64,000 nt of DNA from Candidatus Marinacidobacterales bacterium (GTDB taxonomy: Bacteria; Acidobacteriota; Vicinamibacteria; Marinacidobacterales; SMYC01), in contig CBDCYI010000004.1 of the NCBI GenBank assembly GCA_965224085.1, positions 256,001 through 320,000 on the forward strand, written 5' to 3'. The notes under the pieces are model-generated. The model worked only from the letters and a program-made list of their open reading frames with translations, ran no database searches and was not told the origin of the DNA. A program made the translations under genes and the position numbers. Shown here one piece after another: positions 38 through 4,630 of the stretch (positions within the stretch are counted from its first letter, which is position 1; every line of letters starts with the position of its first letter).

Positions 38-433
38 ACTATGAATCGGTCCGACTTCCGGCCTCAGCTCAGCACCGCGCTTCGGTTTTCCCTTGCGCGA
101 CGCCCCCATCGGTGACCATTCCGATGGACCCGGCCGGACCTCCTGGGTCCCGAAAGGAACTCTTCGTACGTGATGTGGTCCACGACCCCGGCGGAGCGTA
201 ACCATCTCGCGATAGCGATGGCCCACATGCTGCCTTCATTGACGGGAATCAACTCGGCCTTCCGCGATATTCAGCATTTCGAGGCTACATTCACACACCC
301 TGCACGACCCCTGTCTACGCTTCGGACCCCGCGTTGCCACGACGCCCGCAAGACTCGGTCCCGACCTGTCCGCTACGACTTTTGGTCGGATTGGACTTCC
401 ACCCATAGGCTCCTTTCAGTTAGCCCAGCGCAC
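38..433 (-). mobile_element. Group II intron copy (5' 396 nt, domain I to start of domain III) inserted in the IS256 TIR downstream of the transposase
   Basis: Reverse complement of 1880-2275. Starts GTGCG at 433. Mirror ORFs 64..252(-) and 2061..2249(+) are identical. Confidence 0.93.
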
Positions 434-470
434 TCCCGTCGGATGTTGAATTTGGTCGGGTAGCGGCGGC
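434..470. repeat. IS256 terminal inverted repeat downstream of the transposase, inner part
   Basis: Reverse complement GCCGCCGCTACCCGACCAAATTCAACATCCGACGGGA matches 1846-1879 except for a 3-nt indel and one substitution. Confidence 0.88.
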
Positions 471-484
471 ACCTGTGAATACTC

Positions 485-1780
485 TTAGGCAGCAAACTCA
501 TCGCTGTCAAGAGATTTCTGTTTGCTTCTAAGCGCGTGAACGAGAGCGCCCATATGGCGATAGCCTTTGATACGCCGGAACTTCTTCTCCGCCGTGACGA
601 CGCCGAGAGCGGTCCATCGGCGAACCATCGAAGGACTCTTCCAACGCTTGACGTTTCTCGATACTCTTCGAATGGTTCCGTTGAGATTCTCAATGGCGTT
701 CGTCGTGGCAAGAGACTGGCGAAGTAACTCGGGCAGAGCGAGCTTCACGACCGTGAGCGTCTCTTCCATCCCTTCGCGAAGGCTTCCGGCAGCTTCATCG
801 TGGCTGTTTCGCTCGAGCCACGACACCAATGCCTGAAGTCGCTTGCGCGCCTTGTCGGCACTCTTGCACTTGTAGGCTTTCTTCATCGTCTGGAGCACGT
901 AGGCGTGACGAGACTTGGGAAGGTACGAGCGAAGATTTCGGAGTTTATGGATCTGGCACCTTTGGATGACCGCGAGATCCCCCAACACGTCGACGAGTGC
1001 CTTGCGGATACCTTTGCCTCCGTCCACTACACAGAGAATCGACTCATCGACGCGCAAGCCTCGCTCGAGAAGGTCCTGCAACATCGCGGTGCACACCCGA
1101 GAGTTTTCCGTCGAGCCCAGCCATATACCCAGGGGCACCTTCGTTCCATCTATTGTGATACCGAGAGTTACGACGACGGTCTGGCCGGCCACCTCAAGGC
1201 CATCCATCATCAGTGCCGCAAGTTCGTACTCCTCTAGCCGCCGAGACAGGTATTGCTCGAGCTTCTTCGTCGTCTGGCTTACGAGGTGACGGCTGGCGGC
1301 ACTCTTGCTCGTGCCACGAGACTTCAACTTGGCCGCGGGTTTGTCCAGACTCCGTTCGTAATTTCGGGTCGATACCCCCACCAAGATCTGATTCAACACT
1401 CGCTCTGGAAGCGGGTCTTCTTCGCGGAAGGCTTCGAAGTGTGGAAGCGACGCCTCCTCACCAGACTTCGAACGCACTCGAGGTCGCGACACTTGGATGC
1501 GACGACCACCGAAGCTCAGCTCTCCGTTCGTGCTCCCCCAGTGGTTATGAGTTCGCTTCTTCTCGTGCTTGCCCTTCGGTCCCGCGATCTCCTCGGCGTC
1601 CTCTCTGAGCAGTAGGTGCAGAGCTGTCAGTCCTTGCTCGTACACCCATTCCGTCAGGTCCGCCTTCGTGGCAGCGATCCCAGCTATCATCGGTAGCAGT
1701 ATCTGACCGACTTGGCCAACTACCTTGCCCGTAGGCGAGTGCGTTTGCTTTTTTACTGGCTTCTTTGATTTCCTAGGCAT
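485..1780 (-). CDS. IS256-family (mutator-type) DDE transposase
   Basis: 431 aa with GVSTR, MMDG, VVDGGKG, QRCQIHKLRN and TTNAIENLN motifs typical of IS256 transposases. AAGGAG RBS upstream. Confidence 0.95.
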   Translation of the reverse strand: MPRKSKKPVKKQTHSPTGKVVGQVGQILLPMIAGIAATKADLTEWVYEQGLTALHLLLREDAEEIAGPKGKHEKKRTHNHWGSTNGELSFGGRRIQVSRPRVRSKSGEEASLPHFEAFREEDPLPERVLNQILVGVSTRNYERSLDKPAAKLKSRGTSKSAASRHLVSQTTKKLEQYLSRRLEEYELAALMMDGLEVAGQTVVVTLGITIDGTKVPLGIWLGSTENSRVCTAMLQDLLERGLRVDESILCVVDGGKGIRKALVDVLGDLAVIQRCQIHKLRNLRSYLPKSRHAYVLQTMKKAYKCKSADKARKRLQALVSWLERNSHDEAAGSLREGMEETLTVVKLALPELLRQSLATTNAIENLNGTIRRVSRNVKRWKSPSMVRRWTALGVVTAEKKFRRIKGYRHMGALVHALRSKQKSLDSDEFAA

Positions 1781-1781
1781 T

Positions 1782-1851
1782 GGTGGCTCCTTGTCCCCCT
1801 CTGGAGACGGTTGTTTGGCAGACCTATTTTTAGGCCGGCCAAGGAGCCGCC
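1782..1851 (-). promoter_or_regulatory. Hairpin that could sequester the IS256 transposase RBS in read-through transcripts
   Basis: GGTGGCTCCTTG (1782-1793) and CAAGGAGCCGCC (1840-1851) form an 11/12 inverted repeat that includes the RBS. Confidence 0.5.
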
Positions 1852-1879
1852 GCTACCCCAAATTCAACATCCGGCGGGA
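1846..1879. repeat. IS256 terminal inverted repeat upstream of the transposase, inner part; also the intron 5' exon (IBS)
   Basis: GCCGCCGCTACCCCAAATTCAACATCCGGCGGGA lies directly before the intron GTGCG. Confidence 0.88.
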
Positions 1880-3772
1880 GTGCGCTGGGCTAACTGAAAG
1901 GAGCCTATGGGTGGAAGTCCAATCCGACCAAAAGTCGTAGCGGACAGGTCGGGACCGAGTCTTGCGGGCGTCGTGGCAACGCGGGGTCCGAAGCGTAGAC
2001 AGGGGTCGTGCAGGGTGTGTGAATGTAGCCTCGAAATGCTGAATATCGCGGAAGGCCGAGTTGATTCCCGTCAATGAAGGCAGCATGTGGGCCATCGCTA
2101 TCGCGAGATGGTTACGCTCCGCCGGGGTCGTGGACCACATCACGTACGAAGAGTTCCTTTCGGGACCCAGGAGGTCCGGCCGGGTCCATCGGAATGGTCA
2201 CCGATGGGGGCGTCGCGCAAGGGAAAACCGAAGCGCGGTGCTGAGCTGAGGCCGGAAGTCGGACCGATTCATAGTACTGAGGAAGCTATCGAAGGCAACG
2301 AGATGGTGGAGGGAAGGGATCGGCCTGGAGGGAACCCACGGGAGAGGGCTAAGGTCCGGACACAGCGCCGGGTCGCCTTACCGCCAAATCTCACGCGGGT
2401 GAACGAAGCAGCGAAGCGAGATAGAAAGGCTCGGTTCACTGCGTTGCTGCATCACGTGGATCACGAAGCGCTCTATCGAGCGTTTCGTCGGTTGAAGCGC
2501 AGCGCAAGCGCTGGTGTCGACGGAGAGACTGTCGCCGATTACGAGAAGAACTTCGTGAGCAACATCAAGGATCTTTGCTCGCGGGTACACGCCGGTCGCT
2601 ACCGACCACTACCGGTGCGGCGCGTGTACATTCCTAAGTCGGATGGCGGAAAGCGCCCTCTTGGCATCCCCGCACTGGAAGACAAGATTGTCCAAGGAGC
2701 GGTAGCCGAGGTTTTGAGCGCCGTCTACGAAGTCGATTTCATCGGGTTCTCGTACGGGTTTCGGCCCGGACGGAGCCCGCACCAAGCGTTGCACGCGCTC
2801 CACACCGCGCTCATGACGCAACGCGTGAACTGGGTTCTCGACGCGGACATCCGCAAGTTCTTCGACTCGGTGGACCACGAGTGGTTGATGCGGATGCTTT
2901 CGCACCGGGTCGCCGACAAACGCATCCTTCGACTCATCCGTCAGTGGTTGCGAGCCGGCGTACTGGAGAAAGGAGAGTGGAGCGAGACAACTGAAGGGAC
3001 ACCGCAAGGGGCAGGTGTGAGCCCGCTCTTGGCTAACGTCTTTCTGCACTACGTTCTAGATCTGTGGGTTCATCGATGGCGCCGGCTCGAAGCACAAGGC
3101 CGTATTTCCATCGTGCGATACGCTGACGACTTCGTCATGGGCTTCCAGCATCGGACCGATGCCAGCAGGATGATGAGAGCGCTCAAGGAGCGACTAGCCC
3201 GATTCGGGCTTGCGCTCCACGAGAACAAGACCCGTTTGCTCGAGTTCGGGAGATTACCTTCCTTGTCACGCGAGCAACGGGGCCTTCGGCGGTGTGCGAC
3301 GTTCGCTTTCCTGGGTTTCACTCATTATTGTGGGAGAACCCGCGATGGCCGTTTCGTCGTGAAGCGCAAAACGCAGAGCCAGCGGCTACGAGCCAAACTC
3401 AAGTCGCTACGGCTTCGCGCGAAGCAACGTATGCATGCTCCAGTCGCCGTCCAGCATCGCTGGCTTTGCCAGGTGCTGCGCGGTCACTACGCGTACTACG
3501 GACTTCCCAGCAACATCCGCTCTCTCCAATCCTTTTCTGAGGAGGTGACACGGTTGTGGTTTCGAAGCCTTCGTCGGCGGAGTCAGCGCCGAATGACCTG
3601 GCCTCGTTTTCACTTGTTGTTGGAGCGCTTTCCCCTACCAGTCCCTCACCTCACTCCGTCCCGACTACCTTGCCTTGTCTGATTTCGGGTATACCTTCAG
3701 GAGGAGCCGAGTGCGGGAAAGCCGCACGCTCGGATCTGTGAGGGCGAAAGCCGAATGGCTGAGCTACTCGAC
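1880..3772 (+). mobile_element. Complete group II intron (endonuclease-less IEP, resembles bacterial class E)
   Basis: 5' GTGCG at 1880. Domain V GAGCCGAGTGCGGGAAAGCCGCACGCTCGGATC at about 3704-3736. Domain VI ends CTACTCGAC at 3772 (AY end). Internal RT ORF. Confidence 0.93.
2303..3682 (+). CDS. ltrA: Group II intron reverse transcriptase/maturase (start uncertain)
   Basis: ASAGVDG, YIPKSDGGKRPLGIP, SYGFRPGRS, GTPQG, RYADD, FLGF and a domain X (LRGHYAYY). No C-terminal HNH domain. Confidence 0.95.
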   Translation: MVEGRDRPGGNPRERAKVRTQRRVALPPNLTRVNEAAKRDRKARFTALLHHVDHEALYRAFRRLKRSASAGVDGETVADYEKNFVSNIKDLCSRVHAGRYRPLPVRRVYIPKSDGGKRPLGIPALEDKIVQGAVAEVLSAVYEVDFIGFSYGFRPGRSPHQALHALHTALMTQRVNWVLDADIRKFFDSVDHEWLMRMLSHRVADKRILRLIRQWLRAGVLEKGEWSETTEGTPQGAGVSPLLANVFLHYVLDLWVHRWRRLEAQGRISIVRYADDFVMGFQHRTDASRMMRALKERLARFGLALHENKTRLLEFGRLPSLSREQRGLRRCATFAFLGFTHYCGRTRDGRFVVKRKTQSQRLRAKLKSLRLRAKQRMHAPVAVQHRWLCQVLRGHYAYYGLPSNIRSLQSFSEEVTRLWFRSLRRRSQRRMTWPRFHLLLERFPLPVPHLTPSRLPCLV

Positions 3773-3778
3773 CATCCC

Positions 3779-3880
3779 CCCCGGCAGGGCTTCGCTTCTG
3801 TCACGACCCTCGAACACGACTTGGCCGTTCACGAGGACGAGCTCGACCCCGCGAGCATATTGATGAGGCTGGCGGAATGT
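3779..3880 (-). pseudogene. C-terminal remnant of a D-aminoacylase-like amidohydrolase abutting the IS256 end
   Basis: Minus frame reads TFRQPHQYARGVELVLVNGQVVFEGRDRSEALPG. No upstream gene body. Confidence 0.5.
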
Positions 3881-3963: not shown

Positions 3964-4170
3964 ATGATCGTTTGTCTCTGTAAAGGCGTGACTGACCGCA
4001 CCATCCGTACGCTCGTGCGCGAGGGCGCGTGCTCCATCCGGGACGTCGGACGCGCGTGCGACGCGGGCCGTACCTGCGGCGGCTGCCGACCGACGATCGA
4101 CCGGCTCGTTGCGACAGAGACGAGGCAGCGCAAGTCGCCTCGCGGTATGATGAAGGGTCATGAAAGGTGA
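3964..4170 (+). CDS. bfd: Bacterioferritin-associated [2Fe-2S] ferredoxin
   Basis: MIVCLCKGVTD...CGGC motif, upstream of bfr. Confidence 0.88.
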   Translation: MIVCLCKGVTDRTIRTLVREGACSIRDVGRACDAGRTCGGCRPTIDRLVATETRQRKSPRGMMKGHER

Positions 4171-4630
4171 TGCAAAGATCATCGAAGCCCTCAACGACGT
4201 CCTGACCGCCGAGCTCACCGCCATCAACCAGTATTTCGTGCATGCCAAGATGTGCGAGAACTGGGGCTATAAACGCCTCGCCAATAAAAAGCGCGACGAG
4301 TCCATCGAGGAGATGAAACACGCCGATAGCGTGATTCTCCGGATTCTCTTTCTCGACGGCATCCCGAATATGCAGCGCCTCAGCCCGGTGCGCGTCGGCG
4401 AGGAAGCGGTCGAGCAGCACAAGCTCGATTTGGAGCTCGAGCTCGACGCCATAACAAGGCTGAACGACACGATCGCGCTTTGTCGCGAGAAGGGCGATAA
4501 CGGCACGCGCGAGCTACTCGACAGCATCTTGAAAGAAGAAGAGGACAGCGTCGATTGGCTCGAGGCACAGCTCCATCTCGCCGAAGAAGTGGGCCGCGAG
4601 CGCTACCTCGCCGAGCAGATCAATTCTTAG
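4160..4630 (+). CDS. bfr: Bacterioferritin
   Basis: MKGDAKIIEALN..ELTAINQYF.H..ESIEEMKHAD, 156 aa. Confidence 0.96.
   Translation: MKGDAKIIEALNDVLTAELTAINQYFVHAKMCENWGYKRLANKKRDESIEEMKHADSVILRILFLDGIPNMQRLSPVRVGEEAVEQHKLDLELELDAITRLNDTIALCREKGDNGTRELLDSILKEEEDSVDWLEAQLHLAEEVGRERYLAEQINS

Follow-up and report, generated by a model that had tools for sequence, protein, structure and literature searches.

A group II intron 7 bp inside both ends of an IS256-family element in Candidatus Marinacidobacterales, a second intron nested within it, and relatives of the first across bacterial phyla

We analyzed a 64,000-nt stretch of the genome of a Candidatus Marinacidobacterales bacterium (GenBank assembly GCA_965224085.1, contig CBDCYI010000004.1, positions 256,001 to 320,000 of the forward strand), called the window throughout and located at G000:C4:256001-320000, where G000 is the source genome and G001 to G004 are the four other genomes of the genus. 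At its left edge lies an insertion sequence (IS) of the IS256 family whose two terminal inverted repeats (TIRs) each contain a copy of one group II intron, intron A, and the left copy is itself interrupted by another group II intron, intron B. The locus is thus a nest of three levels, the IS, then intron A, then intron B, with the following features in window coordinates unless marked C4:

1 to 37, minus strand: 5′ end of intron B (nt 1-37, GTGTGCTGGG...); the whole intron, 2,033 nt, is at C4:254005-256037, mostly upstream of the window
38 to 433, minus strand: left copy of intron A, nt 1-396, split by intron B; nt 397-1893 are at C4:254004-252508
434 to 474, no strand: left TIR, inner part, placed from inverted repeats I1 and I3 and the junction table
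485 to 1780, minus strand: IS256-family transposase open reading frame (ORF), 431 aa, intact (NF033543, 225 bits; PF00872, 143.6 bits)
1842 to 1879, no strand: right TIR, inner part, serving as 5′ exon of intron A, with ...TTCAACATCCGGCGGGA at its end
1880 to 3772, plus strand: right copy of intron A, complete, 1,893 nt (GTGCG...CTACTCGAC; RF02005 and RF00029)
2065 to 2072, plus strand: hairpin loop of exon-binding site 1 (EBS1), UUCCCGUC, from the Rfam alignment and covariation with the exon across relatives
2275 to 2276, plus strand: homing site of intron B, unoccupied, 27 nt upstream of the start codon of the intron A protein
2303 to 3682, plus strand: reverse transcriptase (RT)/maturase, the intron-encoded protein (IEP) of intron A, 459 aa (TIGR04416, 365 bits; RVT_1; YADD)
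3702 to 3772, plus strand: domains V-VI of intron A (RF00029, 53.2 bits)
3773 to 3779, no strand: IS tip CATCCCC, the outer 7 bp of the right TIR and the 3′ exon of intron A
3780 to 3787, no strand: 8-bp target-site duplication CCCGGCAG, with its partner at C4:252493-252500

Both copies of intron A start with GTGCG (at 1880 on the plus strand and at 433 on the minus strand), each directly after ...TTCAACATCCG(G/A)CGGGA, and nt 1-396 of the left copy (38-433) are 100% identical to 1880-2275. The inverted repeat at 38-455 and 1858-2275 extends over 418 nt, its sole mismatch being the G/A difference within the TIR. A first-pass annotation, made from the window sequence by itself, had described two intron copies with these starts behind CGGGA in both IS256 TIRs, which our analysis confirmed; the end it gave for the intron, however, moves from 3778 to 3772. 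It was also right that the terminal bases of the IS lie outside the intron, although these number 7 (CATCCCC, 3773-3779) rather than about 6. Identity of the left copy ends at window position 38 because intron B sits at nt 396/397 of intron A, and this twintron has pushed the outer 7 bp of the left TIR 3.9 kb off.

By the criteria of ribozyme, IEP, and EBS1, intron A is a mobile-type bacterial group II intron without an endonuclease. Rfam models placed a group II D1-D4 core (RF02005, 140.9 bits, cut-off 49) at 1914-2137 on the plus strand and at 176-399 on the minus strand, and D5/D6 (RF00029, 53.2 bits, cut-off 40) at 3702-3772 on the plus strand, while the termini, GTGCG at 1880 and ...CGAC at 3772, fit the 5′ GUGYG and 3′ AY criterion. 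The IEP matches TIGR04416 at 365.4 bits (cut-off 300) and RVT_1 at 134.8 bits, with YADD at residue 273, and a profile search and motif check found no HNH/endonuclease domain in its 459 aa. The class D motif LX3AX3PXLF[V/A]HW was found by motif check in neither IEP (A, 459 aa; B, 458 aa), and we take intron A to be of ORF class E, which is a guess. The right copy differs from the three other full copies in the genome by 0-2 nt.

Members of the IS256 family are about 1.3-1.5 kb long, end in TIRs, and duplicate 8-9 bp of their target. The transposase of the window matches the IS256 model NF033543 at 225.2 bits (cut-off 150) and PF00872 (Transposase_mut) at 143.6 bits, and intron-free copies of the IS in congeners, which are 1,460 bp long and read GGGGATG...CATCCCC, agree with the family in length and TIRs. 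Throughout the source genome, all 11 of the 5′ junctions of intron A follow the TIR, ...TTCAACA(T/G)C(C/G)G(A/C/G)CGGGA, as the first-pass annotation had expected of the intron flanks, and CATCCCC and, beyond it, unrelated DNA follow all 12 of its 3′ ends. Two intron-free IS ends in this genome (C7:319 and C4:895340) read ...CGGGA/CATCCCC, with the slash at the insertion point, before their sequences diverge, which is the reading that had been predicted. The prediction for the DNA upstream of the window held as well: ...CTCGAC/CATCCCC is present there on the minus strand, together with the 8-bp CCCGGCAG at C4:252493-252500, so the whole C4 unit is flanked by a direct repeat whose other copy is at window 3780-3787. 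A second unit, at C11:1214104-1223413, carries intron B in both introns and is flanked by the 8-bp CTCACGGA, and the double-invaded architecture is also found on C5, giving three such loci in the genome in all; at one further IS a single end is invaded and the other is free. In run X4, a contig passes from the left flank (to L001 2502) through a single CCCGGCAG into right-flank sequence (CTTCGCTTCTG...), which we read as the empty site at the window locus, and contigs of run X3 pass from the IS end into CATCCCC and then into other flanks.

The same IS is present at 91-95% identity in all four other genomes of the genus. Counting by exact pattern, with reversed-pattern controls at 0 throughout, we found 11 invaded and 2 free ends in the source genome versus 0 invaded and 86 free ends, reading CATCYCC, in the four congeners together (free ends: 4 in G001, 49 in G002, 31 in G003, and 2 in G004; invaded ends: 0 in each). 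Both ends were uninterrupted in all six full congener copies sampled (CGGGA/CATC(C/T)CC), and 8-bp duplications flanked the free ends in five of the six. A DNA search recovered a near-identical full intron A only in the source genome, among the 7 candidates scored per genome; G002 holds one 540-nt fragment that is 100% identical to the 3′ end of the intron (C1:852315-852854), and apart from this fragment G002 and G003, the two complete congeners, are intron-free. The genus provides a natural example of layered genomic parasitism with a built-in comparison, 11 of 13 IS ends being invaded in one genome versus intron-free congeners.

Relatives of intron A occupy the same place in other bacteria. 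We found at least 8,000 relatives of its IEP at E ≤ 0.001, the top 120 of which are 68-97% identical, and confirmed 476 of 499 candidate stretches in species-representative genomes; the best 80 loci were analyzed, with junctions located using nhmmer. These 80 loci span Alphaproteobacteria, Acidobacteriota, Gemmatimonadota, Planctomycetota, Chloroflexota, and others, and relatives with 62-77% IEP identity from many phyla were mostly at the same position of IS256-type ends. T at -17, C at -15, C at -12, G at -2, and A at -1 occurred in 46 of the 56 unique 5′ exons, with -5 to -9 variable. On the 3′ side, C was found at +1 in 57/61 and at +7 in 51/61, and no base exceeded 25/61 at +8 to +12. Together with the 11 of 11 junctions in the source genome, this core motif supports the first-pass proposal that the TIR is a homing site offering two targets per IS. 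Of the 52 junctions that had 1 kb or more of sequence upstream, 34 lay within 500 nt of an IS256-family transposase ORF, which was on the opposite strand in 20 cases and on the same strand in 14. A mate TIR, defined as the reverse complement of the rebuilt site with at most 11 mismatches in 30, accompanied 21 of the 43 introns having both junctions and enough upstream DNA, mostly at a distance of about 1.42 kb, though one of these matches (L102) is probably spurious. Perfect 8-bp duplications with their boundary at +7/+8 were present at 10 of the 21 mate-TIR loci, two more look 9-bp by eye, and a contig of a proteobacterial metagenome-assembled genome (MAG; L035/L037) carries one IS that introns have invaded at its two ends, like the window. 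Plasmids also hold relatives, at 60-80% identity in 49 of 4,299 matching records (Sinorhizobium, Bradyrhizobium, Rhizobium); gene tables for two plasmid regions list no nearby transposase, and because such tables omit pseudogenes they are uninformative either way. The same insertion point across phyla suggests a long co-diversification of the intron clade with a transposon cis-site, of which our literature searches found no report. What makes the finding of interest is mainly this lineage-wide insertion point at +7, together with the contrast with the intron-free congeners.

The site is matched by a loop of the intron RNA. In the Rfam alignment, UUCCCGU (window 2065-2071) forms a hairpin loop where EBS1 is expected, and the loop UUCCCGUC pairs with intron-binding site 1 (IBS1), (G/A)CGGGA, at the very end of the 5′ exon. 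We aligned the 5′ 400 nt of 65 related introns and tallied the pairing over 63 distinct sequences: standard EBS1-IBS1 pairs occurred at -1, -2, -3, and -4 in 61, 60, 62, and 54 of 63, respectively, with several pair types per position, and exon and loop changed together as in these examples:

exon GCGA, loop UCGC
exon GACGCA, loop UGCGUC
exon ACCGGG, loop CCCGGU
exon TTTGGC, loop GCCAAA
exon TGCGGG, loop CCCGCA

EBS3 is the probable reader of the C at +1, and the IEP or an undetected EBS2 are candidate readers of the conserved distal motif at -10 to -18 (TTCAACATC here). Three other modes of recognition were considered and rejected. GTGTAG near intron nt 112 as EBS2 matches CTACAC targets, but the intron reads GCGTAG here, where the target differs; a GUUGA/UCAAC match beside EBS1 proved to be the stem of the EBS1 hairpin; and recognition of a hairpin as in group IIC introns found no echo in the 5′ exons of four sites, which fold no better than shuffled sequences (z-scores of 0.71, 0.96, -0.36, and 0.28).

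Intron B is 2,033 nt long, starts with GTGTG, ends with ...CCCGAC, matches RF00029 at 41.3 bits, and encodes a 458-aa RT/maturase (TIGR04416, 393 bits) with a GIIM domain. Seven identical copies are present in the genome, six of them at nt 396/397 of intron A, in domain IV and 27 nt upstream of the start codon of its IEP; six of the 11 intron A copies that keep this position carry intron B. The seventh lies in a third intron of another type (RF02003) at C9:853583, for which an empty allele exists at C4:1591262/1591263. With six copies in intron A and one in an RF02003-type intron, intron B appears to be specialized on other introns. In contigs of three DNA runs there is a joint from which precisely the 2,033 nt of intron B are missing, with ends GT..AC. 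RNA run X14 gave thin cover of parts of both introns, which shows neither transcription nor splicing because spliced forms also occur as DNA.

The RF02003-type third intron has several diverged copies (120 bits), including L109 2355-2491 (C4:1590855-1590991) and L110 2177-2313 (C9). In the L109 copy there was no D5/D6 match and no long IEP ORF was seen, and it may be degraded or ORF-less.

We consider it highly probable that intron A retrohomes to the TIR of IS256-family elements. In the mechanism we propose, this endonuclease-less intron would retrohome into a site of ~25 nt in the outer TIR, exactly 7 bp from the IS tip, which its RNA would read by pairing of EBS1 (UUCCCGUC loop) with IBS1 (...CGGGA). 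Since the site is in both TIRs, on opposite strands, each IS presents two targets, and both are filled here. Intron A would have arrived after the IS copies had diverged and nearly saturated its targets, and intron B would then have homed into domain IV of intron A, with 27 nt left to the start codon of the IEP. Divergence among the four full IS copies is 2-17 of 1,446 nt and is greatest for the window copy, even though its intron is identical to others; among the four full intron A copies it is 0-2 of 1,893 nt, and the three double-invaded ISs differ in the arm that carries intron B. Near-identical introns in diverged ISs and the differing intron B arm therefore fit a recent arrival of intron A and independent homing, and not duplication of a composite. 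Spread by homologous recombination between IS copies was rejected as implausible, because only 7 bp of common sequence would be available 3′ of the site.

We infer that retrohoming proceeds through RNA and, by analogy with the endonuclease-less RmInt1, that it may be primed at replication forks; the evidence for activity is indirect, namely near-identical copies at 11 sites and 11 invaded versus 2 free targets. A comparison of insertion strand with replication direction was uninformative, as the GC skew is weak (~0.01): of five single insertions, one had the orientation expected of fork priming, two to three did not, and one lay where the skew is near zero. An invaded IS could presumably no longer transpose, because its cleavage tip lies 1.9-3.9 kb from the inner TIR and RNA splicing cannot repair a DNA cis-site. 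If invasion does block transposition, the intron clade would act as a natural brake, and a widespread one, on an IS family that is among the commonest and whose relatives drive genome rearrangement in many bacteria. The ~25-nt site, being partly read by RNA, could also serve to tag or disable IS256-type elements.

Several points weigh against this account, beginning with the fact that splicing, mobility, and loss of transposition are all deduced from sequence. The transposase ORF is intact in all four full IS copies of the genome, which is not as long-term immobilization predicts but fits a recent invasion. At least five loci (L030, L084, L092, L102, and L103) are in unrelated sites, and 18 of the 52 junctions are without a nearby transposase; most of these still carry the motif and may be remnants. 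The 80 loci are not independent, having been selected for the highest scores, with many belonging to a few genera (Bradyrhizobium, Mesorhizobium). In the EBS1 tally, position -4 is mismatched in 9 of 63 sequences and pairing in some relatives is limited to ~3 IBS1 positions, and column-wise and per-sequence scans found no covarying EBS2 partner for exon -8 to -20, so part of site recognition is unexplained. The contrast in full-length IS copies, with at least about 20 in G002 and at least about 8 in G003 versus 4 in G000 (40 candidates scored per genome), sets a single lineage against its four kin, and genome size is a confounder.

The same 8-bp duplications could indicate that the IS and its flanking introns form a composite that the transposase still moves via the displaced 7-bp tips, with the introns as cargo. 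They surround the whole intron-IS-intron unit at two loci and the IS with one intron in 10 of 21 related loci, and the four intact transposase ORFs would provide the means; yet insertion of the IS first would predict such duplications just as well. Introns that differ by 0-2 per 1,893 nt inside IS hosts that differ by up to 17 per 1,446 nt, three double units that differ in the arm carrying intron B, an IS with one end invaded and the other free, an empty-site contig without the whole unit, and congeners with 86 free ends and no composite lead us to regard this as very unlikely. The first-pass annotation had also raised the concern that the left copy is an assembly fold-back, and a 418-nt inverted repeat near the window edge in a repeat-rich genome might yield a fold-back or a collapsed repeat. 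The left copy, however, can be followed across the nested intron into a unique flank of its own, where the target duplication matches, the X4 contig supplies the empty site, and the same architecture recurs at C11, at C5, and in a MAG unrelated to this genome, so that an artefact is scarcely credible. Parts of the stretch are covered by contigs of three DNA runs, none of which spans the whole of it; the flank-to-intron unitigs of X1 and X3 extend 28 nt past the junction, where 31 were needed to count as bridging.

The homing site could also be the same and the primer different, if the 3′-OH left by the IS256 transposase at the IS end (copy-out) primed reverse transcription. Endonuclease domains of group II introns cleave their targets at +9/+10, a geometry that a transposase-made end would resemble, and such priming would replace the absent endonuclease and explain the fixed 7-bp distance. 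The IEP has no endonuclease domain, insertion is always 7 nt from the tip across divergent TIRs and phyla with conservation stopping at +7/+8, and both ends are filled whatever the replication direction at three loci here and one in the MAG. The fixed distance may, however, just reflect TIR homology, clade members also sit at the five non-IS loci named above and in truncated TIR remnants, which shows that an IS is not needed in every case, and RmInt1-type introns without an endonuclease are known to use replication forks (PMC4615759); priming by the transposase thus seems to us unlikely. Taken further, the cross-phylum clade would be an obligate hyperparasite of IS256-family transposons with the transposase as its missing endonuclease, a proposal we rate just as doubtful. 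In that case the intron would reverse-splice 7 nt inside the IS tip and the 3′-OH on the flanking strand would prime cDNA synthesis, such that every transposition attempt would risk invasion and permanent disabling of the IS, and this would account for the constant position at +7, for both ends being filled whatever the replication direction, and for the near-saturation (11/2 vs 0/86).

Retrohoming of intron A into the TIR, the reading we favor, has a close precedent. Though the first-pass annotation took the double-TIR architecture to be undescribed, an intron in both inverted repeats of one IS has already been published, namely RmInt2 in ISRm17. We take ISRm17 to belong to the ISDol1 group of ISfinder, which PMC10194956 spells differently. 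In the reports on RmInt2, a class D intron of Sinorhizobium meliloti GR4, every copy is placed within an inverted repeat of ISRm17, two targets per IS are described of which one is always on the lagging-strand template, and such introns are suggested to restrain IS spread (Martinez-Rodriguez et al. 2014, PMC4615759; Toro et al. 2018, PMC5894124). The transposase of ISRm17 has been named as ISNCY family (PMC10194956). RmInt2 as described there is like intron A in having double targets per IS on opposite strands and in tolerating mismatches to part of the target. It differs in its ORF class D and 419-aa IEP with the LX3AX3PXLF[V/A]HW motif, which is absent from the 459-aa IEP of intron A, in having A rather than C as IBS3, and in its ISNCY rather than IS256-family host. 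The same sources describe RmInt2 from one strain with 7 copies, whereas the intron A lineage recurs across phyla, and near-saturated targets and a nested third layer set intron A further apart. Given this precedent, the novelty here lies in the intron lineage and the IS family and does not extend to the principle. Our full-text searches of the literature found no report linking this intron lineage to IS256 ends, although an earlier mention is possible.

Other known systems share single traits with this locus. RmInt1 in ISRm2011-2 (IS630 family) of S. meliloti also lacks an endonuclease and has its homing site in a multicopy IS, and its insertion is thought to block that IS; it is of a different intron class, and the available parts of the literature describe its target within the IS without mention of repeats, with one site per IS. 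Group IIC introns, which insert at terminator or attC stem-loops, are likewise endonuclease-less and aimed at a repeated DNA motif outside genes; in contrast to these, the 5′ exon of intron A has no stable hairpin, its IBS1 pairing extends over 5-7 nt, and its target is a conserved sequence. The closest parallel to the nesting of intron B is found in the twintrons of Thermosynechococcus elongatus, where the inner intron sits at one fixed site by the start of the outer IEP ORF and the inner copies are identical and read as recent independent insertions, like intron B (Mohr et al. 2010, PMC2882425). That report also cites nested introns of Methanosarcina acetivorans as similar (PMC2882425). The TeI3 introns are described there as ORF-less, whereas intron B encodes its own IEP. 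Unlike the T. elongatus case, intron B is 27 nt upstream of the start codon and also occurs in an unrelated RF02003-type intron, and the outer intron A lies inside an IS repeat.

Some further copies of the IS and intron A in this genome are truncated or rearranged. A solo-looking intron A beside a 5S rRNA gene (C11:193429-195321) keeps 17 + 7 nt of the TIR. This 24-nt remnant is abutted by a 246-bp repeat (C11:195342-195587) that has ~9 copies and resembles a miniature inverted-repeat transposable element, and two group I intron matches lie within the 23S rRNA gene of the adjoining operon, whose end is next to the solo intron (RF00028, 55.1 and 70.7 bits; L004 774-1021 and 1106-1374, C11:190774-191374). 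At C4:1360216 the IS end is followed by only GTGC of intron A and then by another multicopy element, whose 389-bp end, with at least 20 copies (C4:1359823-1360211; C5:684453-684712), cuts intron A after nt 4 at one site and after nt 653 at another; the introns here are therefore themselves targets of other ISs. At C11:484177-487617 (L007), a full intron A on the minus strand is joined to nt 979-1446 only of the IS and then to nt 826-1899 of intron A on the plus strand, which looks like recombination between inverted intron copies. Downstream of the IS and its introns in the window, at 3964-4630, we noted by eye a small Cys-rich ORF resembling Bfd-type 2Fe-2S proteins and a bacterioferritin-like ORF at 4160-4630.

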